This document shows, in pieces, positions 23,791-55,101 of a stretch of DNA of 57,163 nt (positions are counted from its first letter, which is position 1; every line of letters starts with the position of its first letter). The notes beneath the pieces were generated by a model, which saw only the letters and a list, made by a program, of their open reading frames with translations, made no database searches and was not told where the DNA came from. Origin of the DNA: Desulfurococcales archaeon. Lineage in GTDB: Archaea; Thermoproteota; Thermoprotei_A; Sulfolobales; NBVN01. The stretch is taken from the NCBI GenBank assembly GCA_026986435.1, contig JALSOP010000035.1, positions 1 to 57,163 on the forward strand, in the 5' to 3' direction. The position numbers and the translations under genes were made by a program.

Positions 23791-23890
<100 letters not shown>

Positions 23891-28372: not shown

Positions 28373-31300
28373 TTAGCTCTTTGCACCCATCATCCTTTTC
28401 TCGATCTCCCTCATCTCGCCAAAGATGTCCGTGAGTAGCTTCACGTAGAGTGTGAACCCGTCCTCACCTACCTCCTCCACAGTCCTCATGCGCTCCTCGA
28501 GTTCCCTGGTCTTGTCCTCGGTAACGAACTCCCTGTACTTCTTGAGGAGGTGCCTGTAGACCTCCATGCCGAGGATGGTCGGCACGAGCACCCTGTTGTG
28601 TTCGACGTACCTCCGCTTCTTTATGGTGTCCATTATCTTTGCGTATGTGCTCGGCCTACCTATTTTCTTCTCCTTCATCTTCCTAACAGCGTCAGCCTCA
28701 CTCAGTAGAGTGCCTTTCTTCCCTATCCATACGAACCTGATCTCGCACGGGTGAACCACCCTCTTCTTTCTCCTCTCCCTCGGCGGTGGGGGTCTGCAGA
28801 CAACGCCCCTGAGCTTCTCAAGAACACCCGTATCAACTAGTGGCACGTTGACATAGAACCTGAGATAGCCATCGAAGGTGTCCTCAAGGCCGAGCACGTA
28901 GGCCTCGCCAGCGTCAACGTCGCTTATGCGGACCTCGTGACGCTCGCCCCCAACGTACCCGACGAGCTTGATGTCAGCCTTAAGCCTCGCCTTAGCTACC
29001 TTAGCAGGGGCTGCCTGGCTTGCCATGAATCTACGGAATATCATGTCATAGACAGCGAAGTGTCTCGACTCTAACCTCCTAACAGGCTCTATGACTCCCT
29101 CATTGATGAGGTCCCTTAGTGTCTGCTCGTCTATCGGCCTCGTCGGCCTTATGCACTCGTGGGCACCTCCCTCGCCCCACCTCCTGGGCCTGAAGTACCT
29201 GTCCCCTAGCTTCTCCGTGATGTACTCCCTGGCCACCGCTATCCCGGCGTCGGAGACCCTCGTTGAGTCAGTCCTGTGGTAGGTTATGAAGCCCAGCTCG
29301 AACAAGTCCTGGAGTATCCTCATTATCTCCTCTGAGCTCATCCTCAGCTTCTGGGATATGTCGCTGATCGCTGTGTCCGTTGTGTACGGTGGCGGCGGGT
29401 TAATCTCCGCGAGCTCCTCTAGTAATTCTGCGGTGATTGCTAACTCCGCGTGCTCTATGCCACTCTTACTCCTTGGCGTGAGCATCCACCACTGCGGCGA
29501 GCCGTAGAGAGCTGACATTGGGACATAGACTCTTCTCGTAATCTTTTTGTCTATGCCGAGCGGCTTTACGCCTATTCTCTTAAGGAGTTCTGCGTCCTCT
29601 TCAGTGAACTCGCGCTCAATCCTTAGAGAGGGTGCCAATACCCTGCCCTCCCCAGCATTAGCTATTAGGTCTGGTCTGAGGGTGAGCCTCATCCTCGGAC
29701 CCCACTCAGAGAGGTGCATTTTCAGTCCTTCGATTATCCAGCCAAGAACGGGAGTCTGCACCCTGCCAGCGCTCAGATTTCTATACGGTCCTCTTTTCTT
29801 ACAGTTTGTTAGAACTACTGAGGGTAGTGGTTGCCTGAGCTTCACAATTATTTTCTTATCGCGATCTGCTCTGAGTAACTTCCTCAGCTTCTTTACGTCC
29901 AGAAGGACATACTTATCCACGTCATACCTGGTGCGAAGGTCGTCGGGTCTCATCTTGTTCCTTTTCATGTAGTTGTTAATGTTTTCGCAGAACACTGGCC
30001 AGAAGTTCTCCTGTAGATCCTTCGAGAGTGGGAACCCTATCCACCTGTCCTCTATCCTCCTAATGAGCTGAGCCATGACCAGGTTCTCGTCGATGTTCCT
30101 CGGGTTCTCGATGGCTTTCAGGACCGCCTTCCTCGTCACCTCGTGGAACTCGACGCGCTTGAGGGCGTTGTCGCTTGGGAGCATCGGTCTGACGATGTTC
30201 CATACGTCGAACGCTATTTTCTCGCCTTCGGTGTCGGGGTCCGTCCCTATGAGTACCTCGTCGACCTCCATAGCGACGTCCCTGAGGGCCTCTATGATCT
30301 CCGTTGCGGACTCTATCTCACCTTCTGTGGCGTATCTCTCCCATGCCTCACTGTATTCCGGCTCTGCTATGAAGGTCGTGGCCGGCCTGTTTTCGTCGCC
30401 TCTTATGATTCTCCTTCTGGGTGAGTAAATCGGGACGAAGGGAGGTTTGTTGCTCCCGGCGACCAGCTTCTCCCTTCCGGCGATCCCGTAGTAGTGCCTT
30501 ATGTGGGGCGCTACCTTCTCATGCTTCACTATCTTCTGAAAATCGACTATCAAGTCGTATATGTGGCCGCCGCTGGCCGTTATGAGTAGTGTGAGGGAAC
30601 CTATCGATACCTCGTATACCCTTAACCTTCCGTAGGTTCTTGAGCTCGGGCGGCCGAAGAACCTCGCTATTGTTCTGGCCTTGTTGGGTGATTCAACGAT
30701 GAAGAGCGCTGTCTTTATGTCCGTTACCCTCGGTAGTTCGGCAGCGCTCACTTTCTCCCCGCTCCTCAGCCTCCTTATGAGTTCCCTGTGTCTGTCCACC
30801 TCCTCAAGGGTTTTCTTGACCTTCTCGGGGTCCCATTCGTGGAGGGCGAATTCGTCTATTAGCCACCTTATCCTGTGCTCGAGCCCGTAGACGAGGCGAT
30901 CATCGTGCTCAAGGATCACCGCTATACCCTTGCTTATGCCGCCCAGGAAGAGCCTCGATGTCCTCCCGCTCGCCTGGATGTACGTCCTAACGTCAGGTAT
31001 TAGCACGTAGAGGGCGCCGGCCTCGACCCTAACAGAGACCTCCGGGTTCTTCTCGATCGCCTCAATAACGGATTTGTCCCGGAGGGCCGCCCTCACAATC
31101 ATGAAGGCCTCCGCGAACACCCTCTCAAGCCTGCTCATGGTCGAGGCACGCTCGCGGATCTCCTCGTCACTCAGCCCCCTGATCTGGGACAGGAACTCGT
31201 CCAGCCTGTTGAGTATGTAAGTGCCCCTGCGCCTGATCTCCCTCCTCACGATGTTGAGTGCTGCGTTAAGGGCTCTCCTCTTCGCCTCATCCCTTATGGC

Positions 31301-32797
31301 GTCTCTGACCAGCGGTATTAGCTGGAGGAGGTCCCTAGACCCGGTCTCCTCCCCTATCTCGAGCCTCACTTTATGCCTAGGAACACCCACGAAAACCGCA
31401 TACCTAATGATCTCCGGTATGTCCAGCCCCCTTACAAGAACACCGTAGTATGTCGCTACACCGACAAGTACATTGATGTCCCCCTTCCTGAACGCCTCTA
31501 TGATCGAGACAGCGTCCTTCTTGCTGTGAACGGCCTCGGCCTTGATCCCTGCGTCCTTAAGGTATGAGGCTATGGCCTCGGCAGCCTCTATTCCAAGGTC
31601 CTGTGAGACGTAGACCAGGCCTCCTCTAACACCCAGGAACTCGACAGCCTTCACCAGCTCATCAAGATTCTCTTTCCTAAGGTACGGGGCCTCCACCTTG
31701 ATGAGGTAGTCGTCCACGTTACGTATGAACTCCGGCCTAGCACCTATCTCGAAGCCCAGCAACTCCCTGAAGAGCTTGACCCTGGGCCCGCGGGGGTTGC
31801 CGGTGGCAGAGGCGAGAAGCACGAGGGTGCTTATCTGCTCCCTCCTCCTCTGTAGCTTCTTGCTCAGCTTCTCCAGCACCCGCCTATCTCTCTCCAGGCG
31901 TGGGTTGAAGGCGAGCCTCCTCCTGAGTGTTATTATTTCCATACCATCCTGTATGTCCTCCTTGGTGAACCCCGCAAGCATAAGGATGAATTCTATCACC
32001 CTCGAAGATCTCATGACTGCGTCGACATCGTCGACGAATATCATCCCCCACTTCCTTCTCCTCCCGAGGCGCACGAGGCCCTCAAAGATCTCGTCCCCAT
32101 TCTCCTCATGCTTCTTCCCCAGCCTGAGCAGGAAGTTGGAGGTTGTGATGAGGATGTCGAAGTCACCGTTCTTTACCGCCTCCAGCACCTCTTTTCTGGC
32201 GGATGCACGTAGCTTGGAATGAATAGCTACGACCCTCGGCTCCCACCCGGTGATGTTCCGGGCCAGTTCCTCAACTCTCTCCTTGATCTGCATTACGAGT
32301 GTCGTTGTGGGCGCCATGAAGTATGACTTGAGACCTTTCTCCTTAGCTAGGTAGAGGGCGAGTACCACGCCGAATGTCGTCTTGCCAACTCCGGTTGGGG
32401 CTATCATAGCGAAGGAGAGGCCCTTCGCCGCCCTCCTTATCCAGAGCCTCTGAATCGCCCAGGGCTTACTGCCCATGACCTGCGTGAAGAAACTCTCGAT
32501 CTTTGCTGACTCCTTTATCATTCTGCAGTAGACTCCATAGGAGGTGTTCCTGAGTAGCCCACGCTCCTCAAGGTAATCACATATGTTTCTCCTGAAATCA
32601 CCCCTTCCCTTAAGCCTGTTTAGCACGTCGTCAGGGATACACTTCGAGCACGGAAGGCCTGCCCTCAACCTCTCATCGCTTATAGCCCCACCGCACACGG
32701 GACACGTCTTAAGGTAAACAACAAACCTAGCGCGAGCGACCTCGCTGACGAATCTCTCGGCCTCAGCATCTACCGGGGAAATTGGAGCAGCACCCAA
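28373..32797 (-). CDS. rgy: Reverse gyrase (helicase-like domain fused to type IA topoisomerase)
   Basis: 1474 aa. N-terminal zinc finger CPVCGG...CSKC, helicase motif I APTGVGKT, motif II VDDVD, Toprim ESPNKARTIARFFG and GTDPDTEGEKIAFD, SAGRVQTP, and catalytic Tyr block ITYHRTDSTR. Confidence 0.97.
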   Translation of the reverse strand: MGAAPISPVDAEAERFVSEVARARFVVYLKTCPVCGGAISDERLRAGLPCSKCIPDDVLNRLKGRGDFRRNICDYLEERGLLRNTSYGVYCRMIKESAKIESFFTQVMGSKPWAIQRLWIRRAAKGLSFAMIAPTGVGKTTFGVVLALYLAKEKGLKSYFMAPTTTLVMQIKERVEELARNITGWEPRVVAIHSKLRASARKEVLEAVKNGDFDILITTSNFLLRLGKKHEENGDEIFEGLVRLGRRRKWGMIFVDDVDAVMRSSRVIEFILMLAGFTKEDIQDGMEIITLRRRLAFNPRLERDRRVLEKLSKKLQRRREQISTLVLLASATGNPRGPRVKLFRELLGFEIGARPEFIRNVDDYLIKVEAPYLRKENLDELVKAVEFLGVRGGLVYVSQDLGIEAAEAIASYLKDAGIKAEAVHSKKDAVSIIEAFRKGDINVLVGVATYYGVLVRGLDIPEIIRYAVFVGVPRHKVRLEIGEETGSRDLLQLIPLVRDAIRDEAKRRALNAALNIVRREIRRRGTYILNRLDEFLSQIRGLSDEEIRERASTMSRLERVFAEAFMIVRAALRDKSVIEAIEKNPEVSVRVEAGALYVLIPDVRTYIQASGRTSRLFLGGISKGIAVILEHDDRLVYGLEHRIRWLIDEFALHEWDPEKVKKTLEEVDRHRELIRRLRSGEKVSAAELPRVTDIKTALFIVESPNKARTIARFFGRPSSRTYGRLRVYEVSIGSLTLLITASGGHIYDLIVDFQKIVKHEKVAPHIRHYYGIAGREKLVAGSNKPPFVPIYSPRRRIIRGDENRPATTFIAEPEYSEAWERYATEGEIESATEIIEALRDVAMEVDEVLIGTDPDTEGEKIAFDVWNIVRPMLPSDNALKRVEFHEVTRKAVLKAIENPRNIDENLVMAQLIRRIEDRWIGFPLSKDLQENFWPVFCENINNYMKRNKMRPDDLRTRYDVDKYVLLDVKKLRKLLRADRDKKIIVKLRQPLPSVVLTNCKKRGPYRNLSAGRVQTPVLGWIIEGLKMHLSEWGPRMRLTLRPDLIANAGEGRVLAPSLRIEREFTEEDAELLKRIGVKPLGIDKKITRRVYVPMSALYGSPQWWMLTPRSKSGIEHAELAITAELLEELAEINPPPPYTTDTAISDISQKLRMSSEEIMRILQDLFELGFITYHRTDSTRVSDAGIAVAREYITEKLGDRYFRPRRWGEGGAHECIRPTRPIDEQTLRDLINEGVIEPVRRLESRHFAVYDMIFRRFMASQAAPAKVAKARLKADIKLVGYVGGERHEVRISDVDAGEAYVLGLEDTFDGYLRFYVNVPLVDTGVLEKLRGVVCRPPPPRERRKKRVVHPCEIRFVWIGKKGTLLSEADAVRKMKEKKIGRPSTYAKIMDTIKKRRYVEHNRVLVPTILGMEVYRHLLKKYREFVTEDKTRELEERMRTVEEVGEDGFTLYVKLLTDIFGEMREIEKRMMGAKS

Positions 32798-33109: not shown

Positions 33110-33919
33110 TTAGAGCACTGCTCTACTCACGAAGTACCTCACTAGGTCATTGAGCGTCACTGCCGCCCTGATCTCGTTCTCCTCAACGAGGTAGACCGCT
33201 TTCACCCTCTTCTCGCTCATGAGTGCGGCGACATCCGAGATCGTAGAGTCCAGGGGCTGGATGGGTACGTAGGGTCTCATTATCTCGCCTACCCTCACCT
33301 CTCTTAGGTAGTCCTTCGGCCCGTACTCAGCTGCGTAATCTATGAGGTCAGCCAGTAGCTTGGCGATCTCGTAACTGCTTACTATTCCTGCCGGTTTTCC
33401 TTCGAGGTTGCGCACGAGAACCTGCTGTACGCCCTCATCAATGATCATTCTCCTAACCATGAGCACAGAGTCAGTCTCCCTCACCTCCCTCACCACGCTG
33501 GTCAACGCTGAGGTAACCCCCGCCTTCTCGTCCTTTAACATCGCAGCAATCTCCCACTTCGTGACCAGGGCTGATACCTCACCAGCTTCATCGAGCGCTG
33601 GTATACTGCTTATCCCCTTCTCAACCATCACCCTAGCGGCCTTCGTTACTGGTGAGTTCTGGGGCAATGCTATTAGTGGGAAACTCATGACGGCGGAGAC
33701 GTGGAGAGTTGTGGTTGGAACTCTCTTAGATTTTGTCGGCGCTAGCTTTAGGGCTATGTCTGTCAGCGTCACTATCCCGACAGGCTTGTCGTTGTGATAG
33801 ACAATTGCCCTGTCCTCCCCCCTGCGAAAGAGTTCCCTTATGAGGTTGTATAGCGTGTCGTTCTTGTTTGTCTTCATGAAGTCTTTCCTACCGATCTCGA
33901 TCAGAGTAGGCTCCATCAC
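33110..33919 (-). CDS. Stand-alone CBS-domain protein (4 CBS motifs), paralogue 4 of 4
   Basis: 269 aa. Repeated h.p..h.sh..ss.h..A..hM....h..hPVh-type units (e.g. VYHNDKPVGIVTLTDI, ALDEAGEVSALVTKWEI, VRNLEGKPAGIVSSYEI, LVEENEIRAAVTLNDL). Confidence 0.9.
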   Translation of the reverse strand: MMEPTLIEIGRKDFMKTNKNDTLYNLIRELFRRGEDRAIVYHNDKPVGIVTLTDIALKLAPTKSKRVPTTTLHVSAVMSFPLIALPQNSPVTKAARVMVEKGISSIPALDEAGEVSALVTKWEIAAMLKDEKAGVTSALTSVVREVRETDSVLMVRRMIIDEGVQQVLVRNLEGKPAGIVSSYEIAKLLADLIDYAAEYGPKDYLREVRVGEIMRPYVPIQPLDSTISDVAALMSEKRVKAVYLVEENEIRAAVTLNDLVRYFVSRAVL

Positions 33920-33921
33920 CT

Positions 33922-34791
33922 CTACCCCTTCCTCACTGCTTTAAGGATCTCCTTCTTCGTGACCAAGCCGGCGAGCTTGCCAGAGCCGTTCACCACCGGG
34001 AGGGTGCTTATCCCGTTAGTTATCATTATCCTAGCTGCCTCAGCCAAGTCCTCCGAGGGCGAGATCGTGATCGGGTTGGGTGTCATGATGTCGAAGGCAA
34101 CAGGCATTGTGTAGACACGTACGACACCCGGTATTCCCCTACCGGTTAACCCAGCTCTTTTGACGAACTTTGTGCCTGTCCTTGCGAGAGGGAATATGTT
34201 ACTGTACATTATGTCTGCTTTAGTAATTACACCAACAACTTTCTCACCGTCAACCACTAAAGCCCGACCATATTCTCCCACAACTTCAGCGACATAGAAG
34301 AATGAGTGCTGTGGATGGACTATTGGGAGTTCCTCAGTTATCATCATTTCCTCTACTCTATGCGCTCCTTTATAATTCTCTGCATATGCCCTAACGATAT
34401 CCGTCTTCGTTATTATTCCTCTGAGCTCCTCCACACCGTTCACAACATCTATGACCACGAGGGAGCCTATCTTCCTAGTAAGCATTATGTGGGCTGCTCT
34501 CTTGATCGCCCTAGTAGGCCTTATCGAGTAAACAGGTGTGGACATTATCTCCTTGGCTAGTATGTCCGTTAACGGCCTGTACATCCTCTTTCTGTTGTAC
34601 ATTATCCTCACGAAGTCGCTCCTGCTTATAATGCCGACAACCCTGCCCCCACTCTTCGAACTCACGATCACTACTCGGCCTATGCCGTACCTTATCATGA
34701 GGTTCCTTATCCTGGCGAGGTTATCGTTCTCATCAGCCGTAACGACCTCCGACGTCATGTATTTACTCACTCTGGGAGGCATCACTCTCAC
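33922..34791 (-). CDS. Stand-alone CBS-domain protein (4 CBS motifs), paralogue 3 of 4
   Basis: 289 aa. MTSEVVTADEND..., GRVVGIISRSDF, ELRGIITKTDI, EKVVGVITKADI and GKLAGLVTKKEI. Confidence 0.9.
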   Translation of the reverse strand: MRVMPPRVSKYMTSEVVTADENDNLARIRNLMIRYGIGRVVIVSSKSGGRVVGIISRSDFVRIMYNRKRMYRPLTDILAKEIMSTPVYSIRPTRAIKRAAHIMLTRKIGSLVVIDVVNGVEELRGIITKTDIVRAYAENYKGAHRVEEMMITEELPIVHPQHSFFYVAEVVGEYGRALVVDGEKVVGVITKADIMYSNIFPLARTGTKFVKRAGLTGRGIPGVVRVYTMPVAFDIMTPNPITISPSEDLAEAARIMITNGISTLPVVNGSGKLAGLVTKKEILKAVRKG

Positions 34792-35726
34792 CTCGTGAGC
34801 GCGGCGTATAGAATGTCTCTCTCAGTAATTATTCCCACCACCTCATCGCCCCTCATGACGAGGGCGTAGTCCTTTCCTCTCTCCTTCATCCTAATCACCA
34901 CGTCCGCGAGGTCTTCCCCTGGAGACGCCCTTTCAAAGTCCGTCGTCGTCACTAGCGCTAAAGGCAGGTCGTTGAACTCTGTTACCGTGTACTCCTTCAG
35001 ATGATTGAATACCTCGTGAGAACCTACGAACCCTATTATTTCCCTCCACGTTACCACACCCCTTAACACCGCTCCGTCCACGACGGGAAGACGCCTAACA
35101 CCCGTAGACACCATAAGCTTAAGGGCCGCTCCTATGCTGGCCTCCCTCGCTATGCTTATAACTGACTTACTCATTACCTCGGATACGGTGGTGCCCCTAA
35201 CCAATGCGTGGACATACCGCGTAAGTATCTCCTCCGTGATCATGCCAACGAACTTACCGTCCTCCTCAACCACAGGCACGGCTCCTAGCCCGTTCAGCAC
35301 CATTACCTCGATAACCTTCATTGGGTCAGTGTCTATGTCGACCGAGATCACCTTTGTTGTCATGATGTTCCTCACGTGCGCATAGAGGGCGTCGTAGATA
35401 CGGTCGCCGAATCTCTGAGCAATTATTCTATATTTCTGCCCGCCGCCCAGATACTCGATTATGTCCATACCAGCTACCACGCCACCGAGGTTGTTGCCCG
35501 GATCCACTACCGGGAGCACCCTCTTACTTGATGACGTCATCGCCTCCGCGGCGTTGAGCACCGTCGATACCTCACTTAAGGTGGGCACCTTCTTATCGAG
35601 GAGCGGCTGGAGTTTCGGTATGACCTCATGTATGTTATCGCGGAAGTTGGGCTTGCCGTCACTTCTTAACCATCTGTTCTTCTCAACTACTCTCCTGTAT
35701 ACGGGCCTCTTCACCACGGAACTCAC
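34788..35726 (-). CDS. Stand-alone CBS-domain protein (4 CBS motifs, N-terminal extension), paralogue 2 of 4
   Basis: 312 aa. NLGGVVAGMDII, GKFVGMITEEIL, VLRGVVTWREI and DEVVGIITERDIL. 4-nt overlaps with both neighbours. Confidence 0.9.
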   Translation of the reverse strand: MSSVVKRPVYRRVVEKNRWLRSDGKPNFRDNIHEVIPKLQPLLDKKVPTLSEVSTVLNAAEAMTSSSKRVLPVVDPGNNLGGVVAGMDIIEYLGGGQKYRIIAQRFGDRIYDALYAHVRNIMTTKVISVDIDTDPMKVIEVMVLNGLGAVPVVEEDGKFVGMITEEILTRYVHALVRGTTVSEVMSKSVISIAREASIGAALKLMVSTGVRRLPVVDGAVLRGVVTWREIIGFVGSHEVFNHLKEYTVTEFNDLPLALVTTTDFERASPGEDLADVVIRMKERGKDYALVMRGDEVVGIITERDILYAALTR

Positions 35727-36511
35727 CTCAGAAAAGCCTTCACAGCATCACTCCTGTCAACAATGCCAACCAGAGAACTATTCTCATCGGTCACAGGAAC
35801 CCTGCCGATCTCCTTATCCAACAGTACCTCAACGACCCTCACAACCTCATCGTCCGGAGACACTGACACAGCCGGCGTCGTCATGGCGTCCTTGACCCTC
35901 GGCCCTCTCCTAGGCCCACCAGGGGACTCCAACTCGATCCTCGTGTAACCCCTCCTAAGGAGGTCGTGCTGTGTTATCATCCCAATTAGCTCGAGAGTCT
36001 TCGCGCTTCTAACGACAGGGAATCCACTTATTTGAAGCTCAACCATCCTTCTCCATACCCTCGATATGGGCTCATCGGGGAGCACGTACTCAAGAGGCGA
36101 TGTAGTCATTATTTCCTCAACCTTCATGCCAGCCCTCAGCCTACCCTTCCTTAACATAAATCCAAGGAACGAGGCCAAGCTCACGACACCTACGTACTTC
36201 CCGCTCCTCTCATCCACCACTGGCGAATACCACTCATCGAACTCGACCATGGCTCTTACAGACTCGAACATGTCATCGTCGGGACGGAATATTAGCCGGG
36301 GCCTGTCAGCGGCGTCGCGGACTGTTGCTGTTGAGCGTGTCGATGTGAGTAGGAGAACGCTTTCTCTTTTTATAACGCCATAAAGTGAATCCTCCTCAAC
36401 TATGGGTAGCATTCTTAGTCCTATATCCCTCATCAAGGCTCGAGCCTTGGTGAGAGGGTCATCGGGTGATACGGTTGGGTAGTGAGAATCGATAAGGAGC
36501 TTAACCTTCAA
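35723..36511 (-). CDS. Stand-alone CBS-domain protein (4 CBS motifs), paralogue 1 of 4
   Basis: 262 aa. DSLYGVIKRESV, GKYVGVVSLASF, LELIGMITQHDL and SSLVGIVDRSDA. Confidence 0.9.
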   Translation of the reverse strand: MKVKLLIDSHYPTVSPDDPLTKARALMRDIGLRMLPIVEEDSLYGVIKRESVLLLTSTRSTATVRDAADRPRLIFRPDDDMFESVRAMVEFDEWYSPVVDERSGKYVGVVSLASFLGFMLRKGRLRAGMKVEEIMTTSPLEYVLPDEPISRVWRRMVELQISGFPVVRSAKTLELIGMITQHDLLRRGYTRIELESPGGPRRGPRVKDAMTTPAVSVSPDDEVVRVVEVLLDKEIGRVPVTDENSSLVGIVDRSDAVKAFLR

Positions 36512-36532
36512 GGAGTCACCATTAATACTATG

Positions 36533-38488
36533 TCATTCAGGCGATTTATCTCTTCTAACCGCCCTTCCGCCGTAACCAACGATTCTTGATGGACCCGGAA
36601 CCTTGTTGATTACGTGATCAGCCTTAAGGTCGATTAAGCCCGGGACCACCTTTCTGAGTCTCTCCACGATCTTCTCAGCTACCTTACCCTTCTTGATGTT
36701 GCCGGGCTCTATAACCACGTACACCTCTGCACGGCCCCCGATAACTTCTTCTGGACCAGCGACCAGTCTGTACCCGTCTGCGCCGACCAATTCCGCCCCT
36801 ATTGCCAGGCGTAGCCTCACCCCCTTTATATAATTCTTCTTCCCGTAAACCATGAACGAGCCTTTCGGCAGGTACTGGCCTGGAGGCGGAGACTTACTGA
36901 CCTGCTCACCACGCACCCAGAACACGTCAACGGCAACAAATCCCGAAGACCAGGCCTTGCTGTATGATGCAGCCATTACTGCAACTTCCCTTATATCGCT
37001 ATCCGGGACGTCCCTCCCTTCCGTTAATATGACAAAAGCGGATGCCCCATGCACGTCAGCGTGGACGAAGATGTCTCGGGGGCCCAGATACTTCCGCACC
37101 ACTTTCTCATTCTGCTGCGCATCCCTCCCCCCGATTGCGAGGAATCCGTGGCTCGTGATGAGCCAGTGGTATGTGTCATACCACTCGATAATCCTCCGCA
37201 ACTTTCTTACACTGGCCTTCGCTCGCACTTCAGCTAGTCTCCTCTCGAGTTCCTCCACCGCCTTCCTCCCTCTCTCTAGCCTCTCCCTCTCTTTCTCTAG
37301 CTTCTTCATTAAGAGGGCATGCTGTCTGTGAAGAGGCTCCATCACATTCAATGAGAGCTCGGTACCATTAATGGTGACCTTAAACACACCTCTGGAAGGC
37401 TCTACGTCATCTACCCTGCAAAACTCACGTACTCTATCCCACCCCACACTCTTAACCGTCTCTCGAACACATCTCCAGAGCTTCTCGACAATGTAGTAAT
37501 TCTCGGAAAACACCCTCGCCTCCGCATCAAGGCGGTTTATCGCCTCCTTAATCTCCTCTAGTCTCCTAAGGGCCTCCTGGAGGAGGGCCTCATGCCTGGC
37601 TACCTCACCCTCACTGACCACTCCCTCGCTCAACACCTGAGAGAAGTAATCATCGACGGCCTTAGAGAACGAGTCATACTCCGTGTACTCAACCTCTGTC
37701 CCTCTGTAGAGGTTCTCCGGCATGAATGGGTGAAAAGCGATCGGCCTTCCCGAGACCTTCACGATGACGGGCCTTGGCGACTCAATAACGGCAAGTATGA
37801 AAGTCTTCACTTTCCTTATTAATTCAATAATAGCCTCCGCACCCAGTTCCTCAGGCTTACTAGCCCTCACCTCCTGCTGTATCACCTCATTCACAACCTC
37901 TGGAGGTATGCCCAGCTCCCTGACCAAGGCTGAGCCCACATTCTTTCCTTTCCTCAAGATGATGTCCGTGAGAACCCCCTCATCCTCCCTTAGGATATCG
38001 GGGAGCGGGGGTGGCAGGTAGTACCTGCCACCAGGCACGACAGTTCGGTCCTTAGCCTTTATCGATGAAGTGACAGCGAGCGCCTTACCCTCACGGTTCG
38101 CCAGGGCGGCGATTCCCCTTGGAATTAATTCGACGTAAAATAACAGTCTGGAGCCCTTGTTTCTCAAGGTTGCCTTGAGGATCCTCTCGAACCTCACCTG
38201 CTCCACGCCCTCGATCACGGCACCCCTCATGAACGCTCTAAATGTAGGCACCCATCCCCTCGCGTCCTTCTCGCCTATCTTCCACGTCACGTGCACCCTT
38301 CGGGCAGGTTCAATGAGTACGTAGCCGGACCCGATCTCCCCGCCCTTAATCTTGAGGAGCATGGTCGACGAGGACCTGTATATGTTATCAATTCTTCCGC
38401 CCACGAGAACCCTGTTGAGCTCTCGTGCCATCACCGCCGTATCAAGGGACGTGAAGGAAGACTTAGGCCTGCGATACGCCGTCGACAA
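36533..38488 (-). CDS. NFACT family protein (archaeal Rqc2/NEMF/FbpA homologue; NFACT-N + coiled coil + NFACT-R/DUF814)
   Basis: 651 aa. N-terminal SLDTAVMARELNRVLVGGRIDNIY, a central coiled coil (LEKERERLERGRKAVEELERRLAEV), and GRDAQQNEKVVRKYLGPRDIFVHADVHGASAFVI (DUF814 block). Confidence 0.85.
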   Translation of the reverse strand: MSTAYRRPKSSFTSLDTAVMARELNRVLVGGRIDNIYRSSSTMLLKIKGGEIGSGYVLIEPARRVHVTWKIGEKDARGWVPTFRAFMRGAVIEGVEQVRFERILKATLRNKGSRLLFYVELIPRGIAALANREGKALAVTSSIKAKDRTVVPGGRYYLPPPLPDILREDEGVLTDIILRKGKNVGSALVRELGIPPEVVNEVIQQEVRASKPEELGAEAIIELIRKVKTFILAVIESPRPVIVKVSGRPIAFHPFMPENLYRGTEVEYTEYDSFSKAVDDYFSQVLSEGVVSEGEVARHEALLQEALRRLEEIKEAINRLDAEARVFSENYYIVEKLWRCVRETVKSVGWDRVREFCRVDDVEPSRGVFKVTINGTELSLNVMEPLHRQHALLMKKLEKERERLERGRKAVEELERRLAEVRAKASVRKLRRIIEWYDTYHWLITSHGFLAIGGRDAQQNEKVVRKYLGPRDIFVHADVHGASAFVILTEGRDVPDSDIREVAVMAASYSKAWSSGFVAVDVFWVRGEQVSKSPPPGQYLPKGSFMVYGKKNYIKGVRLRLAIGAELVGADGYRLVAGPEEVIGGRAEVYVVIEPGNIKKGKVAEKIVERLRKVVPGLIDLKADHVINKVPGPSRIVGYGGRAVRRDKSPE

Positions 38489-38996
38489 TGCAAAGCACCT
38501 CCATCCTACCTAGTCTCCTGACTTCATGTCCTAGAGGACAGGACGCAGTGTCGCCTAGTACCGTATAAACTATCTTTCCTCCCGGCGAGAGAACACCCAT
38601 AAACCCCTTGAGCAGGTGTTGAAGGTCGTACCCAGTAAGGAGTACCGTAAAGAGGGTTATGCACCCGAACTTCTCAATGAATAGATTACTTACAAGCACC
38701 ATATCGGAGGCCACTCTCTCAACCACCACTTCACTCTTCCTACACTCATCACATCTCTCAAGCATCTCCCTACTGATGTCAAGACACAAGTACAGCTCCG
38801 GATCGGCGCCCGAATCTCTTAAGTGCTTGAGGAGTAGTCCAGTGCCGCACCCTATGTCAAGTATCCTCGCACCCCTGCATAAGTACTCTATCCCTCTGTA
38901 CTTATTGAGTTGCTCATCGCCGTAGAGTTCGTTATAAGAGGGTGCTATAGCGTCATAGTACTCCATTACCTCATAGGAGTCGTGAGCTTTGCCCAT
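38463..38996 (-). CDS. Class I SAM-dependent methyltransferase
   Basis: 177 aa. YYDAIAPSYNELYG and motif I ILDIGCGTGLL, then CLDISREML. Its 3' end overlaps the NFACT start by 26 nt. Confidence 0.8.
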   Translation of the reverse strand: MGKAHDSYEVMEYYDAIAPSYNELYGDEQLNKYRGIEYLCRGARILDIGCGTGLLLKHLRDSGADPELYLCLDISREMLERCDECRKSEVVVERVASDMVLVSNLFIEKFGCITLFTVLLTGYDLQHLLKGFMGVLSPGGKIVYTVLGDTASCPLGHEVRRLGRMEVLCIVDGVSQA

Positions 38997-39276: not shown

Positions 39277-39774
39277 CTACTCCACCCTACATACAGGCAA
39301 CACGCGGGATATTTCATTAACTACGCTTGGTAACTCGACACAGGAGAACTCAGTAGGGCTGAGAAGGAGCGGGTTAGAGAGATCAAGAGTGCCGGGGCCC
39401 ATATGCTTGGCAACGATAACCCTAGCATAGTCCCTAGCGAGTGATATATCGGCGATCAAGACAACTTTATCTGTTCTGCCAGCTATGCATCTCTCGCGAT
39501 CCCTCGAGACCTTGACGATATCACTGCACAGCTCCCTCGCGCTCGAGGCAGGTTTCACGAAGAGCGTCAGCCTGAGGATGCAATTACGAATAAGTTTCTT
39601 CAATTCACCCACGACATCCAGAAGAAGGCAGGGGTCGGCTCTGACGAGAACTGATCCGTGGTTGTAGTCGAGGAAAACCAGCCTGGCCTTGACGGAGTTA
39701 AGGAGCCTCTCCAGGCGCGCGACCCTGCGCTGATCCACTACACCCGCTATCTCCGCCCTCGCCTTTACCCGCAT
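39277..39774 (-). CDS. Hypothetical protein
   Basis: 165 aa from the ATG at 39774 (MRVKARAEIAGV...). The track start at 39864 would overlap the helicase gene by 100 nt, so I chose the 10-nt overlap. No family recognised. Confidence 0.4.
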   Translation of the reverse strand: MRVKARAEIAGVVDQRRVARLERLLNSVKARLVFLDYNHGSVLVRADPCLLLDVVGELKKLIRNCILRLTLFVKPASSARELCSDIVKVSRDRERCIAGRTDKVVLIADISLARDYARVIVAKHMGPGTLDLSNPLLLSPTEFSCVELPSVVNEISRVLPVCRVE

Positions 39775-42461
39775 CCTTTCATCACCTGCAGGTATGCCAT
39801 AGCATTGAGGATAGCTAGGTCGAGCAATTCCAGGGGGATGTGGTAGTACGTCACGGACCCGCATCCCCCCTTAACTGTGAGTTTGTAGACGTTATCAGTG
39901 TCAGCAAGTAGATTATTTAATATTCCTCTCTCAACGCTTTCAGCCGATAACAGAATCGATGAGGGCTGCTCTCCTCTCTCATAGTAAATCGTTACCTGAT
40001 ACACACTGCTCTTCGAGGGCGGGTCAAAGCATTCCTTGAAATCACTCTCAGCCAATGCCCTCAGATCCTTTGCAAGGGCCCACCTCTTCTCCCCCGTACT
40101 GACATCGTAAAATTCCACAACTCTATATCGCCCGCTAAACTTCCTCATTCCTTTAAGCTTCCTCTCTACGTAGCCCTCGTCAAGGCCCGTGAGAACCGCT
40201 AACTCCTCCACCGTGAAGGCATAGCCGGTCACACTATCAACCAGCAACCTATAGACGCCTCTGTACCAGGGCCTTGTCCGAGGAGACCTCAAGATCTCCT
40301 TCGCTATGGGTGAGACACCAGCGCCACTCACGAACCGCAGAGCGAGCTCAGCGTTCATGAACGCCTCAGCCAGGTGGCCCTTATCCTCGGCTCCGTATAG
40401 CACGCGCAGCTGCCTCAGTATCTCGGCACGGACAACGTCGTTCTTGGCCACTCCAAAACTCGGGAGGACCTCCTTCTCCAACACTGTGTACTCAGGCGAC
40501 ATGCTCAGCGCTCCCTTCACGAGGTCTTCCGAGTAGCCCGACCCGTATAGTTCCTTAATCAAGTCGCCACCACCCTCAACAGCTACTCCCAACGCTGAAG
40601 ACCTCACAGTAACTTCCCTTACCCTGCTACGCTTCGTGTGTAGCAGGAAGTGCAGCAGTAATGAGAATAGCTCGAATTCTCTTTGGGAGTAGGGGCCGTA
40701 GAGGATCAGCGTGTCACCATATTGCTCAACGAATAGCTCCCCCGGGTACGGCGCCCTACCGGGGTATCTCCTGAACCAGCTGGCAACCCTCTCAATGAAG
40801 TTATTGGGGCACGAGCCACTTACGCACTCATTTATCATTCTAAAAAGTTCTTTCGTGATCAGTTCAGACACCACCACAGGGGATCCGTGCCACTCAGGGG
40901 GCTCGCCTCCACCGGTGCTCGGCACCACCTCTATGCGCCCTAACCTCAAGTCTATCCCAACGATATCCCAGTTCTTGCCGGCGAGCCGGACTCTGTCACC
41001 TGGGCGGAGGTACTTAATCACGTACGCGTAGTCCAGGAACCCTATCTCCCTCTCCCTAAACACCACAACAACCTTATCATCCAATGACGGTATAAGTGAG
41101 AAGAACCTCCGAAAATCCCTTCCTGGGCCCTGCTGACTCCATATCCTATAGAACCTGTTCGTGAGCTTGAGTTCGTTGTTATGTCGGCGCACAATGCCCG
41201 CCTCCTTGAGCACCTCAACTATTGACCTCACCCTTTCCGCACCGCAGGGAAGCGATCTGGTGATTATAACGAGTACCTCATCCTCCTCCCTCGGTGAGCG
41301 CTCAAGAAGCATACCGGCTACCGCCCTCGCCACAACATCACCAAAGCATACTAGGGGAGTCCTCTCCTCAAGGAGCCCCTTCATCACGGCCGATGCCGAG
41401 GCAAGGGATAGCAAGTACTCGTAATCGTTTCTTGGAATGATGTAGCCGATTCCAACACCACCGCTTCTATGCCCCGATCTCCCCACCCTCTGAAGAAGGG
41501 CTGTCACGGAGGACGGCGGCCCCACATTTATGACTGCATCCACGTCACCCACGTCAATTCCGAGTTCCAGGGTTTTCGTGGCGATGACAGCCCTTAGGCC
41601 CCCCTCCTTAAGCATTCTCTCGACACTCTCCCTAACCCCTCTTGATACAGAGGAATGGTGAACAGCGAAGCCGCTGAGGCCCATTCCCTCTAACTCTGAG
41701 TGAAGCCTCTCAGCTAACCTCCTCGAGTCAATAAATATGAGGAGCTTACGATGATTCCTCATGATCTCCTTTATCGCGCCGGATACGTCATCGGTAGGTG
41801 GGATGACCTCCACCCTTATGCTTTTTAGTTCCTCCGAGCCTACGTGCATCCGCCCTCTCTTACTCGAGCTGGAGAAGGCGTCGAGGACACCTATCGGGTT
41901 ACTCACTGTTGCCGAGAGCATTATCAGCTGGAAATCACCTGCTAACCCCCTGAGCCTCTCGAGCAATACGGCGAGCTGCGCCCCTCTCTTCGTAGCTAGG
42001 ATCTCGTGAACCTCGTCAACGATGACCCACCTCACGTTCTTGAGCATGTCACGCATCCCGGGCGAGAGATCGATGTCGGACTCCAGGCTCTCCGGCGTTG
42101 TGACAAGGATGTGGGGACGCTCCTTCAGGCGCCTTCTTCTCTCTGCTTGAGCGACGTCACCGTGTTTCCTCGCAACCTTGACGCCGAGTGTCCTGCCGAG
42201 CCGGCTTATCCTCGCCGTTATGTCGTTGATGAGGGCCCGCAGGGGAGTGATGTAGAGGGCTGCTACGGGTTCCGGTCTCTTGACATGGATCTCCGAGATT
42301 ATGGGTACGATGGACGCCTCTGTCTTCCCCCACCCAGTCGGCGCCGTTATTATGACGTTGCACCCCTTCAGCACGGCGTCGAATGCCTTTAGCTGGTACT
42401 CGAACGGCGTTATCCCCAGACTCCTCAGCACCCTACGGATGACAGCGGCGGCGTCCGTCAT
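39765..42461 (-). CDS. Lhr-type (large helicase-related) superfamily 2 DEAD/DEAH-box helicase
   Basis: 898 aa. Motif I APTGWGKTEA, motif II VIVDEVHEI, motif III LSATV, motif VI LQRVGRSGHR, plus a long C-terminal extension as in Lhr-like helicases. Confidence 0.85.
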   Translation of the reverse strand: MTDAAAVIRRVLRSLGITPFEYQLKAFDAVLKGCNVIITAPTGWGKTEASIVPIISEIHVKRPEPVAALYITPLRALINDITARISRLGRTLGVKVARKHGDVAQAERRRRLKERPHILVTTPESLESDIDLSPGMRDMLKNVRWVIVDEVHEILATKRGAQLAVLLERLRGLAGDFQLIMLSATVSNPIGVLDAFSSSSKRGRMHVGSEELKSIRVEVIPPTDDVSGAIKEIMRNHRKLLIFIDSRRLAERLHSELEGMGLSGFAVHHSSVSRGVRESVERMLKEGGLRAVIATKTLELGIDVGDVDAVINVGPPSSVTALLQRVGRSGHRSGGVGIGYIIPRNDYEYLLSLASASAVMKGLLEERTPLVCFGDVVARAVAGMLLERSPREEDEVLVIITRSLPCGAERVRSIVEVLKEAGIVRRHNNELKLTNRFYRIWSQQGPGRDFRRFFSLIPSLDDKVVVVFREREIGFLDYAYVIKYLRPGDRVRLAGKNWDIVGIDLRLGRIEVVPSTGGGEPPEWHGSPVVVSELITKELFRMINECVSGSCPNNFIERVASWFRRYPGRAPYPGELFVEQYGDTLILYGPYSQREFELFSLLLHFLLHTKRSRVREVTVRSSALGVAVEGGGDLIKELYGSGYSEDLVKGALSMSPEYTVLEKEVLPSFGVAKNDVVRAEILRQLRVLYGAEDKGHLAEAFMNAELALRFVSGAGVSPIAKEILRSPRTRPWYRGVYRLLVDSVTGYAFTVEELAVLTGLDEGYVERKLKGMRKFSGRYRVVEFYDVSTGEKRWALAKDLRALAESDFKECFDPPSKSSVYQVTIYYERGEQPSSILLSAESVERGILNNLLADTDNVYKLTVKGGCGSVTYYHIPLELLDLAILNAMAYLQVMKGCG

Positions 42462-42979: not shown

Positions 42980-43480
42980 GTGCACATGCTGACGCTTGTG
43001 AGCGTTGCGGTACTGAAGGATATAGGTAGGGTCTACTATGAAGGCAAGCACGAGTCGTTCTCGAGGGGCGAGGAGGCCGTCCTGCCCCTGTGGATCGCTG
43101 AGGCCCTTCCTGACAGCCTCGAGCTGCGCGAGCCCACAATAAGGGATCACGACATAGCTAACTATTCGATCTCCGAGGAGAGCGCTCGCCCCAGCGATCT
43201 CGTACCCCTTAAACGAACATTCTACTATGAGGCTGCCAAGCTGATCACCGAGTTGAGGAACTCAAGCGACTCCAGAGACCTGGCTAAGGCCGATAGGGTC
43301 GAGGCAGACCTGATGGCACTGATGAAGCGGAGGCTGAACAAAATAATGAGGCTGGCGTTTCTGGGAGCCGAGATCGATGACATAGCTGACAAGCTAACGC
43401 CTGAGGAGATCGCTCTCTTTCTTGAGCTGAAAGACAGCATCGAGGCTTGGGAGAGAGGTGTTGCCCTTGGCAGGCACTGA
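42980..43480 (+). CDS. GINS complex subunit (Gins23-like)
   Basis: 166 aa. GEEAVLPLWIAEAL and RRLNKIMRLA blocks. Sits immediately upstream of and overlapping mcm, the arrangement known for gins23-mcm in Sulfolobus. Confidence 0.7.
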   Translation: MHMLTLVSVAVLKDIGRVYYEGKHESFSRGEEAVLPLWIAEALPDSLELREPTIRDHDIANYSISEESARPSDLVPLKRTFYYEAAKLITELRNSSDSRDLAKADRVEADLMALMKRRLNKIMRLAFLGAEIDDIADKLTPEEIALFLELKDSIEAWERGVALGRH

Positions 43481-45605
43481 GTTCGTCGAGGAGTTCGGGG
43501 GAGGTGAGGAGTTAGTCGCTGATTACATGCTCATGTTCTACGACTTCCTCCGAACATTTAGAGAGAATAACAGGTTCAAATATGTAGAGAGGATCCAGGA
43601 GCTTATCCGTGAAGGGAGGATATCGCTCCATATAGACTATGAGGACCTGCTGCGCTTTGACCCGAAGCTCGTGTCTATTCTAGAAAATAGCCCCGAGGAT
43701 GCTCTCCAGGCCTTTTCGAAGGCTGTGAAGAAGCTGGTAGAGTCACTGGACCCCGATTACGCTGCGGCGGTGAGGAGGTTCTATCCTAGGCTAACTGGCT
43801 GGAAGACGAGGTTATCGATCAGGGAACTTGGGAGCCAGCACGTGGGGAGGCTGGTAATGGTTGACGGTATAGTGGTTAAGATGACGACGAAAAAAGAGAG
43901 AATGATTAAGGCGGTCTACCTACATGTCCTACCCACGGGCGAGTCTCACGAGTTCGAGTGGCCGCCTGGTGAGGAGGAAATGAAGGACGAGTCCGAGAAG
44001 CCTACCTACTGCCCGATCTGCGCCGAGAATATTCTCGGGGAGGAAGGGAAAGGAAGAGGTAGGGGCGTCTTCAAGCTCGTGCCCGAGAGGTCTGTCTTCA
44101 TAGACTGGCAGAAAATAACCGTGCAGGAGAAGCCCGAGGACGTGCCTGCTGGCACCATACCCAGGTCGGTTGACGTGATCCTCACCGAGGACCTCGTGGA
44201 CGCTGTGAGGCCGGGGGACAGGGTCTCTGTGATAGGCGTGCCCAAGCTCCTATCGATGGGTCCCTCGAAGAGGAGGGTAAGGAACCTCTTCTCCATCTAT
44301 CTTGAAGCGAATAACGTCATCGTCTCCCAGAGGTACCTCGAGGAGGTTAAGCTGAGCCCCGAGGACGAGGAGAAGATACTGAGGATGAGCAGGGACCCAC
44401 TCATAAGGAGGAAGATCATAGCGTCCATAGCCCCCACGATCTATGGCCACTGGGACATCAAGGAGGCAGTGGCGATGCTCCTCTTCGGAGGTGTGACGAA
44501 GGAGGTGGGCAACACAAGGAAGAGGGGGGAGATACATGTGCTACTCCTCGGCGACCCTGGAACGGCGAAGAGCGAGATGCTGCAGTTCGCCGCCAAGATA
44601 GCGCCAAGGGCTGTCTACACGACCGGTAAGGGATCATCGGCTGCTGGTCTGACGGCGGCTGTGCTCAGGGATAAGGATACGGGGGAGTACTTCCTCGAAG
44701 CAGGTGCCATGGTGCTGGCGGACGGGGGGATCGTCTGCATCGACGAGATAGACAAGATGAGGGAGGAGGACAGGTCAGCCATCCACACCGCTATGGAGCA
44801 GGGCTTCCTAAGCATAGCCAAGGCGGGTATCGTGGCCCAACTCAACGCTAGGGCAGCGATCCTCGCCGCCGGCAACCCGAAGCACGGGAGGTACATACCT
44901 GAGCTGGGACCTAAAGGGAACATAAACCTGCCGGACAGCATACTCTCGAGGTTCGACCTCATCTTCATAGTGAGGGACGTCGCCGACGTCGAGAGAGACA
45001 GGGCGATGATCGAGCACATACTCACAGCGCACGAGAAACCCACTGAGGTGCAGCCCGAGATCCCGCCCGACCTTCTTAGGAAGTACATAGCGTACGCGAG
45101 GAAGTACGTGAGGCCCAAGCTAACTCAGGAGGCGATCAACCTGATCACGGAGTACTTCGTGAGCCTCAGGAAGCTTAGTGCACAGAACCCCGAGGTACCG
45201 CTCCCCCTAACCCCGAGGCAGGGAGAGGGCCTGATAAGGCTGGCCGAGGCCTACGCCAAGATGGCCTTGAAGGACACTGTGGACGCTGAGGATGCCGCGG
45301 AAGCTATCAGGCTGATGAACTCCATGCTCGAGAGCGTTGGCCTGGACGTGGAGTCAAACATGATCGATATCGACCTGATCATGACGGGCAAGCCAAAAAG
45401 CATGAGGGAGAAGGAGATACTTGTTCTCAAGCTGATTAAGGAGAGGTACTCGGAGTACGGTAGGTGCGTGCTCCATAAGGAGCTGCTTGAGGAGCTGAGG
45501 GAGCACGGGATAACGGATGACGCGCTCAAGCAGATAATAAAGAACCTCAAGCGCTCCGGCGACGTGTACGTCCCCAGGTACATGTGCTACGCACCGGTTG
45601 AGTGA
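43458..45605 (+). CDS. mcm: MCM replicative helicase
   Basis: 715 aa. Walker A GDPGTAKS, Walker B CIDEIDKM, arginine finger SRFDLIF, C-terminal wHTH. No intein. Confidence 0.97.
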   Translation: MLPLAGTEFVEEFGGGEELVADYMLMFYDFLRTFRENNRFKYVERIQELIREGRISLHIDYEDLLRFDPKLVSILENSPEDALQAFSKAVKKLVESLDPDYAAAVRRFYPRLTGWKTRLSIRELGSQHVGRLVMVDGIVVKMTTKKERMIKAVYLHVLPTGESHEFEWPPGEEEMKDESEKPTYCPICAENILGEEGKGRGRGVFKLVPERSVFIDWQKITVQEKPEDVPAGTIPRSVDVILTEDLVDAVRPGDRVSVIGVPKLLSMGPSKRRVRNLFSIYLEANNVIVSQRYLEEVKLSPEDEEKILRMSRDPLIRRKIIASIAPTIYGHWDIKEAVAMLLFGGVTKEVGNTRKRGEIHVLLLGDPGTAKSEMLQFAAKIAPRAVYTTGKGSSAAGLTAAVLRDKDTGEYFLEAGAMVLADGGIVCIDEIDKMREEDRSAIHTAMEQGFLSIAKAGIVAQLNARAAILAAGNPKHGRYIPELGPKGNINLPDSILSRFDLIFIVRDVADVERDRAMIEHILTAHEKPTEVQPEIPPDLLRKYIAYARKYVRPKLTQEAINLITEYFVSLRKLSAQNPEVPLPLTPRQGEGLIRLAEAYAKMALKDTVDAEDAAEAIRLMNSMLESVGLDVESNMIDIDLIMTGKPKSMREKEILVLKLIKERYSEYGRCVLHKELLEELREHGITDDALKQIIKNLKRSGDVYVPRYMCYAPVE

Positions 45606-54222: not shown

Positions 54223-55101
54223 CTAAGGCTCTACCCCATATATTCTCTTAACGCTTCCGACGCCGAGGACATACGCGTCGTCTTCGTCGATGACGCCCTC
54301 CTCAATGGCTTTCTTCACGTTCTCGCTTATTTCCCAAGGATACATCACTAAGCCAGGCCTCTTCGGGTCGTCTATGTAGTCGCTCTCAAGCATGGCACCA
54401 GGCACGATGACGCCGGCGGGCTTCATTTTATCGATTATTTGCTTTCTCCCTGTCAGTGTTGCTGAGTATCCCCTCTTCAGCGCTTCCTTAGCTATAGCAA
54501 TAGAAGAGTGATGAAATATGACCTTACTCAGCCCTCCAGCACCTAGAACCTTCGCGAGCTTGTCTATCATGTGAACCGTTAATGTACCCGCCTCCTCCAG
54601 GTGAAGGTGAAGCGGGACATCCATGTCCTTTGACGCCTCTAGTACACGCAATAGAACGAGCTCGTTAGCTACGAATGAAGCGGGTAGTGTTTTGTAGTGT
54701 GGTCTCCCGAACTCTCCTAGACCATCGATAACGCCATTAGCTACCATCTTTATTATTGACTCAACAGCTTGGAGCACTTTATCCAGCGCCTTCATAGGGT
54801 CTCCTGAAGCCGTCTTTATTATTCTGTCAACTGTTGCCGGGTGAACCCCGCCTATACAGGCAACTGACATACCCTCCCCTCTCACCCTTGAACACAGCTC
54901 AGCGTGTATTTTGGCTGCCCTCACCAAGTTTTCAGTAGTGTCGTCGAGCCCGTAGTAGTGGGGTGGAAGTGATACAAGCACTATGAACCATCCGCCTGAC
55001 TCCTTGAATTTCTTTGCTAACTTAGCCGGGCCTATGCCCAGCGTTGAGACATGAGCATGCCCATCGGCTATTAGTATGCTAGCCATGATTCGCATCGCCA
55101 A
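54223..55101 (-). CDS. TatD-related metal-dependent hydrolase (amidohydrolase fold)
   Basis: 292 aa. LIADGHAHV N-terminal His pair, LHLHLEE, and FHHSS. Confidence 0.7.
   Translation of the reverse strand: MAMRIMASILIADGHAHVSTLGIGPAKLAKKFKESGGWFIVLVSLPPHYYGLDDTTENLVRAAKIHAELCSRVRGEGMSVACIGGVHPATVDRIIKTASGDPMKALDKVLQAVESIIKMVANGVIDGLGEFGRPHYKTLPASFVANELVLLRVLEASKDMDVPLHLHLEEAGTLTVHMIDKLAKVLGAGGLSKVIFHHSSIAIAKEALKRGYSATLTGRKQIIDKMKPAGVIVPGAMLESDYIDDPKRPGLVMYPWEISENVKKAIEEGVIDEDDAYVLGVGSVKRIYGVEP

Follow-up and report, generated by a model that had tools for sequence, protein, structure and literature searches.

Four adjacent CBS-tetrad genes of an uncultured hyperthermophilic Desulfurococcales archaeon as a probable sriABCD ribosome hibernation operon

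Four consecutive genes for stand-alone CBS tetrads

Contig JALSOP010000035.1 of an uncultured Desulfurococcales archaeon, analysed here as a stretch of 57,163 nucleotides (nt; hereafter the window), carries an array of four consecutive minus-strand genes at positions 33110-36511 whose products each contain four CBS motifs. We lettered these genes A to D along the direction of transcription (Table 1). With a probability that we put at roughly 0.85, the locus is the orthologous sriABCD operon (for single ribosomal subunit inhibitors) of a hyperthermophilic host; the sri system itself has already been published, and such a locus is an ordinary copy of it.

Pfam searches returned exactly four stretches of PF00571 (CBS) in every one of the four proteins, with whole-protein E-values of 8e-40 for A, 1e-38 for B, 5e-50 for C and 4e-28 for D, and found no Pfam domain other than CBS in any of them. 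No further CBS protein is encoded anywhere in the window. In pairwise BLASTP comparisons the four proteins share ~21-27% identity with one another over long alignments. A previous reading of the DNA, made from the letters alone (the sequence-only reading), had described four consecutive CBS-only genes and strongly diverged paralogues, and the open reading frames, Pfam and BLASTP bear it out as to position, strand, the four motifs per protein and the divergence. Its account of the junctions, with overlaps of 4 nt between A and B and between B and C and a gap of 2 nt between C and D, is likewise correct for the longest open reading frames.

An ENA assembly and a Logan assembly also contain this locus. 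In the public annotation of the identical locus the starts lie further downstream, by three codons for B and for C and by one codon for D, which gives proteins of 309, 286 and 268 amino acids (aa), and the close homologues of the three proteins match these lengths. Because of this difference in the start, an exact search for B at its full 312 aa returned no entry. B probably starts at the GTG at 35717, C at the ATG at 34782 and D at the ATG at 33916; with these downstream starts every junction becomes a gap of 5 nt. The genes are tightly packed under either set of starts, and a Shine-Dalgarno-like GAGGTGA can be read from the sequence at each of the three junctions.

Orthology to SriA, SriB, SriC and SriD

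In Methanosarcina acetivorans, SriA to SriD are four proteins of four CBS motifs each that are encoded in one operon, MA4648-4651 (Nissley et al., 2026, Nat Commun 17:8083; PMC13454478). PDB entries 9ZNF, 9ZNG and 9ZNI contain 70S ribosomes of this organism with SriA+SriB, SriD and SriC+SriD, respectively. Each of the four proteins inhibited translation in vitro. In extended stationary phase the quadruple sri deletion lost both 30S subunits and the 3' ends of 16S rRNA, and its recovery was slower; the order sriA-D was reported as the commonest arrangement (529 GTDB species) (PMC13454478).

Searches of the PDB with the single window proteins led to the chains of these ribosome structures. The best match of A is M. 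acetivorans SriA (9znf_4, 270 aa; E 4e-36, residues 13-261 against 13-259), that of B is SriB (9znf_5, 339 aa; E 3e-37, residues 26-306 against 47-328) and that of C is SriC (9zni_6, 281 aa; E 5e-23, residues 8-286 against 3-280). For D the best match is SriD (9zni_7 and 9zng_7, 274 and 280 aa; E 7e-12), which is also the sole collinear full-length PDB match of this protein. The single-sequence alignment of D covers residues 16-245 against 28-253 of SriD with 48 bits, and the family profile of D extends this to 18-267 against 27-273 with 130.5 bits (E 6e-37).

Family profiles were built from 22-41 orthologues per gene, taken from 40 related species-representative genome loci, and the orthology is based on these profiles of our own and on the sequences of the solved chains rather than on the published Sri hidden Markov models or tree. 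In terms of best-domain scores, the A profile reached 195 bits on SriA with an off-diagonal maximum of 43, the B profile 228 bits on SriB with a maximum of 58 elsewhere, the C profile 172 bits on SriC against at most 41, and the D profile 130 bits on SriD against at most 78. When not limited to the best domain, the scores on the non-cognate Sri proteins stay at or below 85 bits for the A profile, 96 for the B profile and 98 for the C profile. Reverse searches returned, for every M. acetivorans Sri protein, the cognate window protein as the top match. Besides, in a neighbour-joining tree of 61 sequences (Poisson distances, 100 bootstraps) each window family grouped with its cognate Sri protein, with bootstrap values of 100 for A, 100 for B, 99 for C and 90 for D. 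Judged by these profiles and this tree, A, B, C and D are assigned one-to-one, and in the same order, to SriA, SriB, SriC and SriD.

Family-specific features and structure models

The proteins were furthermore inspected for the features that set the individual Sri families apart. All four are stand-alone CBS tetrads of 262-312 aa, within the 100-500 aa without any other domain by which such proteins are recognised. In A, conservation over stretches of 25 aa is highest in the linker between CBS3 and CBS4 (residues 176-200, IGMITQHDLLRRGYTRIELESPGGP). In B, ~42 residues precede CBS1, which is 33 more than in MJ1225, and the best-conserved part of B lies within this basic extension, at residues 6-28 with the motif K..RR..E.NRWLRSDGKPNF. 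The part RR..E.NRWLRSDGK, at residues 6-25 of B, is common to homologues of 331-338 aa, and the N-terminal motif is also present in Hyperthermus butylicus and Nezhaarchaeales. AlphaFold2 predicts residues 1 to ~35 of B to be disordered, with predicted local distance difference test (pLDDT) values of 44-59, against more than 90 elsewhere in the protein. HMMER aligned residues 26-35 of B to residues 47-56 of M. acetivorans SriB. B would thus count among the SriB-long proteins, which are defined by more than 15 residues aligned to M. acetivorans SriB 27-56, the match to residues 27-46 being taken from the spacing and not computed.

The loop of C that aligns to residues 191-225 of M. acetivorans SriC (NIFPLARTGTKFVKRAGLTGRGIPGVVRVYTMPV) comprises 34 aa with a net charge of +6, compared with 35 aa and +5 for the equivalent loop of the M. 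acetivorans protein and with medians of 34 aa and +5 over 38 orthologues of the C family. C therefore has the long basic loop of SriC, unlike the class termed SriC-short. The linker motif R..P...LHVS of D is common to M. acetivorans SriD.

Canonical ribose-binding motifs of the form G-h-h-[ST]-x-x-D occur at least twice in each of A to D. C retains S/T-x-x-D in CBS1-3, while D retains it in CBS1 and CBS4 and has a Glu in CBS2 and CBS3. By what is generally known of CBS domains, these motifs are expected to bind nucleotide.

An AlphaFold2 model of D, built on a shallow alignment of database matches (pLDDT 86.8), superimposed on 9zng_7 with template modelling (TM) scores of 0.84/0.87 and a root-mean-square deviation of 2.5 Å. 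On SSO3205, MJ1225 and AMP-activated protein kinase (AMPK) gamma it gave TM scores of 0.79-0.86, SSO3205 being the top structural match. Two further observations concern these structural-genomics proteins. The B-family profile scores MJ1225 (PDB 3KH5/3LFZ) at 226.6 bits and M. acetivorans SriB at 225.7 bits, and SSO3205 (PDB 3DDJ) aligns over its full length to the D-family profile. Since MJ1225 has no N-terminal extension, it would resemble the SriB-short class; it goes unnamed in Nissley et al. (PMC13454478). The Sri radiation may include both of these "AMPK-gamma homologues".

Conservation of the array in relatives

The 40 related loci come from Desulfurococcales and Sulfolobales. Wherever the sequence reaches, all of them have A, B and C in this order, and D follows C in 22, while four loci end before the position of D. 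The closest species-representative genome, a metagenome-assembled genome named "Desulfurococcales archaeon" (L001), encodes an A protein that is 85% identical to that of the window, with 91% for B, 94% for C and 81% for D. The check on conservation that the sequence-only reading had put forward thus came out in its favour, as the array is kept and the paralogues are not scattered. Its further view, that the paralogues have been kept as distinct subunits, held up as well, and these subunits are non-redundant.

Four loci have a convergent gene after C. In ten loci labelled "Sulfolobales archaeon" (L020, L022, L026 and L031-L037) a radical-SAM gene lies ~10 nt after sriC, with no sriD there; the encoded protein has ~357 aa and a C-terminal zinc ribbon, and a metallophosphoesterase gene comes next.

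Several observations weigh against the assignment of the locus to sriABCD. Over aligned columns, identity to the M. acetivorans proteins is ~33% for A, ~28% for B, ~29% for C and ~24% for D. The assignment of D to SriD is the weakest of the four: when the scores of multiple domains are summed, SriC (157.6 bits) comes out ahead of SriD (130.4 bits) with the D profile, which we attribute to out-of-register CBS pairs adding up, and MJ1225 scores level with SriD. The D model, moreover, superimposes similarly well on SriD, SSO3205, MJ1225 and AMPK gamma, so that the fold alone cannot single out Sri. In 14 related loci the array lacks D; such arrays agree with the statement of Nissley et al. that subsets of the sri genes occur (PMC13454478). 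The extension of B is ~20 residues shorter than that of M. acetivorans SriB, and HMMER aligned only its last ten residues, to chain residues 47-56; with the B-family profile, too, the alignment to the SriB chain began at residue 47. B may therefore lack the portion that would lie in the exit tunnel. Conservation within the loops of C and D does not exceed that of the remainder of each protein. Finally, the experimental basis of ribosome binding by Sri proteins is confined to M. acetivorans and Methanolobus, which leaves the window proteins to be judged by analogy.

The sequence-only reading had proposed an AMPK-gamma or MJ1225 fold, which the D model reproduces, with TM scores of ~0.79 to AMPK gamma and 0.85-0.86 to the AMP-binding SSO3205 and MJ1225. 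Together with the ribose-binding motifs kept in all four proteins, and with the several non-ribosomal roles into which CBS tetrads have diversified according to the literature on this radiation, the fold would suit an AMPK-gamma-like sensor of energy charge, hetero-oligomeric and free-standing, that serves a non-ribosomal effector, be it an enzyme or the product of a neighbouring gene. We consider this highly unlikely. By profiles and tree each of A to D is the orthologue of one specific Sri protein, which is more than a generic CBS tetrad; the loop of A and the tail of B, which in the homologues contact rRNA, are the most conserved parts, and not the nucleotide clefts; and no kinase and no other candidate effector is conserved in the neighbourhood except an NFACT protein, itself ribosome-associated. 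AMPK gamma proper, a subunit of a kinase heterotrimer, was ruled out as an identity for the four proteins in spite of its similar fold, since sequence profiles place them with Sri (for SriD, 130 bits, compared with 50 bits for AMPK gamma) and the conserved neighbourhood has no kinase gene.

Proposed mechanism and comparison with known hibernation systems

According to the structures of M. acetivorans ribosomes, SriA sits in the A and P sites of the large subunit, and the N-terminal extension of SriB, reported as disordered, lies against SriA and reaches into the peptidyl-transferase centre and the exit tunnel (PMC13454478). SriC occupies the P and E sites of the small subunit and grips the 16S 3' end with a basic beta-hairpin loop, and SriD occupies the small-subunit A site and the decoding centre. 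The A/B and C/D pairs are mutually exclusive on a single ribosome (PMC13454478).

By homology to M. acetivorans, we propose that A to D would act as ribosome hibernation factors working as two pairs. The four genes would be expressed as one transcript from their own promoter, with internal Shine-Dalgarno sites. A would occupy tRNA sites A and P of the large subunit, while the conserved N-terminal tail of B, predicted to be disordered, would pack on A and thread into the peptidyl-transferase centre. On the small subunit, C would take the P/E sites and hold the 3' end of 16S rRNA with its basic loop, and D would fill the A site, the mRNA channel and the decoding centre. Such binding would block translation and shield rRNA from nucleases under energy limitation or during long stasis. 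The on/off state would probably be governed by adenine nucleotides in the CBS clefts, AMP allowing binding and ATP promoting release; by analogy with the characterised homologues, these nucleotides probably tune the ribosome binding of A to D. Ribosome binding, pairwise action and nucleotide control are thus all carried over from homologous proteins and are to be read as predictions for the window.

Where the sequence-only reading had left the output partner unknown, the structures and genetics of SriA-D point to the ribosome as the effector (PMC13454478). Its idea of one hetero-oligomer does not fit the M. acetivorans proteins, which act as SriA+SriB and SriC+SriD, two pairs that cannot share a ribosome. 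The nucleotide or energy sensor that it envisaged survives in part: control by AMP and ATP was shown in the ARC-P/ARC-A orthologues, while a single complex and an effector other than the ribosome are improbable.

Like the M. acetivorans operon, the window array consists of four adjacent bare CBS-tetrad genes in identical order, with lengths of 262/312/289/269 aa compared with 270/339/281/280 aa, and the two share the N-terminal extension of SriB, a basic loop of ~34 aa in SriC and the R..P..LHV linker motif in SriD. They differ in that M. acetivorans is a methanogen and the host of the window a hyperthermophilic member of the Thermoproteota. The genes upstream of sri differ as well, namely a methyltransferase gene and an NFACT gene in the window and a gene of two CBS motifs (2xCBS) in M. 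acetivorans.

The ARC-P and ARC-A proteins of Methanolobus carry AMP in their CBS pockets, and ATP frees them from ribosomes (Zhu et al., 2026, bioRxiv 10.64898/2026.01.19.700304). AMP is held there by T/D pairs, and CBS4 of ARC-A has an arginine pocket that senses ATP; Nissley et al. regard ARC-P and ARC-A as SriC/SriD orthologues (PMC13454478). The adjacent tetrads C and D would accordingly be the orthologues of a pair that blocks the small subunit, binds AMP and is released by ATP, although ARC was described as a system of two proteins and the window has four genes. The Asp that anchors AMP in CBS3 of ARC-A is a Glu in D (GIVSSYEI), while CBS1 of D keeps T..D. Because of this exchange, the nucleotide sites that are occupied in D may differ from those of ARC-A.

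Dri (dual ribosomal subunit inhibitor) of Pyrobaculum calidifontis, a protein of 655 aa with two CBS tetrads (PDB 9E6Q/9E7F), likewise comes from a Thermoproteota host. Its N-lobe is SriA-like and its C-lobe SriC-like, and A matches residues 36-291 of the Dri chain 9e6q_3 with an E-value of 2.6e-15. As the identity of the locus, Dri was ruled out: its two tetrads lie on one chain that exceeds 500 aa, whereas here the SriA-like (262 aa) and SriC-like (289 aa) tetrads are products of two genes separated by a third; unlike Dri, the window also has the extra partners B and D. HibA/AHA is an AMP-bearing hibernation factor at the large-subunit A/P sites, composed of an SriA-like CBS tetrad fused to HPF/RaiA (PMC13324472, PMC12934967). 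It was ruled out as well, as Pfam finds an HPF/RaiA domain in none of A to D. According to a third paper, SriA-D, Dri and AHA/HibA all belong to a single radiation of archaeal CBS tetrads that is related to AMPK gamma.

In 2026, three groups described a near-universal archaeal system of ribosome hibernation and energy sensing that contains this gene cluster. The present locus adds a clean four-gene example from an uncultured hyperthermophile of the Thermoproteota, a phylum previously tied mainly to the fused Dri. What novelty is left lies in the shorter, strongly conserved SriB tail, the promoter-like pattern of sriA and the recurrent NFACT neighbour, and these could guide comparisons of how the peptidyl-transferase centre is plugged at high temperature.

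Upstream region and the NFACT neighbour

The 80 nt upstream of sriA were compared among 36 distinct orthologous regions. GGTG at -9 to -6 is invariant in this set, and the AT content peaks at 0.78 between -45 and -31 and at 0.84 between -20 and -11. In the window, where the pattern lies within 36517-36556 on the minus strand, the corresponding elements are a TATA-like GATAAAT that overlaps the end of the NFACT coding sequence, a proximal box rich in AT and a GGTG placed 5 nt before the TTG start of sriA (Table 1). From this we infer a promoter with a TATA box and a proximal element, followed by a short leader that bears a Shine-Dalgarno site. The GGTG and the AT-rich boxes are present with or without NFACT upstream, and since the pattern is conserved regardless of this gene, the sri operon appears to have its own promoter. 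The sequence-only reading had named the upstream co-directional genes among its candidates for the output partner; NFACT is not needed for this role, the promoter-like pattern of sriA being independent of it. Downstream of D, 312 non-coding bases precede the reverse gyrase gene, so that the operon most likely ends at D.

A block of a methyltransferase gene and the NFACT (Rqc2/RqcH-type) gene adjoins sriA upstream on the same strand, with 21 nt between the NFACT stop and the sriA start. The block holds this position in 28 of the 38 informative related loci (L001-L019, L021, L023-L025, L027-L030 and L038), which span 38-85% SriA identity, while in 10 related loci, as in more distant lineages, the sri array stands without NFACT. 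In the Fervidicoccaceae locus L038, a 2xCBS gene for 164 aa (4930-5424, plus strand) lies between NFACT and sriA, which recalls MA4647, a dual-CBS gene immediately upstream of sri in M. acetivorans.

NFACT proteins act on large subunits. In view of the 28 loci and the gap of 21 nt, NFACT and SriA/SriB could share the pool of free or stalled 50S subunits, and if such a tie were true, a hand-over of 50S subunits from rescue to storage would be conceivable. We hold it unlikely, with a small chance remaining, that the hibernation operon is functionally tied to ribosome quality control in this Desulfurococcales lineage. A link between NFACT and hibernation is absent from the Sri, ARC, Dri and HibA studies compared.

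The same neighbourhood could also be taken to mean that A to D are accessory or regulatory subunits of the NFACT quality-control factor and form one module with it and the methyltransferase. The recurrence of the block across such a range of SriA identity, the short distance between NFACT and sriA and the action of NFACT on large subunits would all suit this explanation, which we nonetheless judge very improbable. The array exists without NFACT in the ten related loci and the distant lineages named above, and the promoter-like pattern of sriA is kept whatever gene lies upstream. Moreover, the M. acetivorans Sri proteins function without NFACT, which Nissley et al. do not mention (PMC13454478). 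That A to D are HhpR-like transcription regulators or DS11-like anti-phage components is barely credible and was rejected, as the sub-threshold NCBIfam matches that would suggest it (HhpR at most 60 bits, DS11 at most 62 bits) stay far under the curated cut-offs of 520 and 260 bits and reflect shared CBS motifs only, PADLOC returned no match and Pfam no DNA-binding domain. The identity of the array as the sriABCD operon is therefore the reading that we retain.

Table 1. Coordinates of the predicted sri array, its putative expression signals and the adjoining genes in the window
Feature	Position	Strand	Remark
A, predicted sriA orthologue	35723-36511	minus	262 aa, TTG start
B, predicted sriB orthologue	34788-35726	minus	312 aa, GTG start, longest open reading frame
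C, predicted sriC orthologue	33922-34791	minus	289 aa, GTG start, longest open reading frame
D, predicted sriD orthologue	33110-33919	minus	269 aa, GTG start, longest open reading frame
GAGGTGA, Shine-Dalgarno-like, A/B junction	35723-35729	minus	read from sequence
GAGGTGA, Shine-Dalgarno-like, B/C junction	34788-34794	minus	read from sequence
GAGGTGA, Shine-Dalgarno-like, C/D junction	33916-33922	minus	read from sequence
Putative sri promoter and short leader	36517-36550	minus	inferred from the conserved pattern
TATA-like GATAAAT	36544-36550	minus	within the last NFACT codons
AT-rich proximal box	36521-36531	minus	upstream of sriA
GGTG	36517-36520	minus	5 nt before the TTG start of sriA
NFACT (Rqc2/RqcH-type) gene	36533-38488	minus	directly upstream of sriA
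Class-I methyltransferase gene	38463-38996	minus	overlaps the start of the NFACT gene
Reverse gyrase gene	28373-32797	minus	1474 aa; 312 nt downstream of sriD

Other features of the window

The reverse gyrase gene indicates that the host is a hyperthermophile, and an AT-rich promoter-like sequence precedes it. A tRNA-Gln gene with the anticodon CTG is found at 23791-23889 on the minus strand; from its length of 99 nt an intron is presumed. An 898-aa DEAD/Helicase_C gene (39765-42461, minus strand) is divergent from a gene for the MCM replicative helicase (43458-45605, plus strand), and at ~42 kb, where the coding strand also switches, the sign of the GC skew is reversed. Between 54001 and 56000 the GC content is 0.458, compared with ~0.54 elsewhere, and this low-GC region includes a TatD-type gene (54223-55101) and the gene for a protein with a CarboxypepD_reg-like domain (55612-57141).

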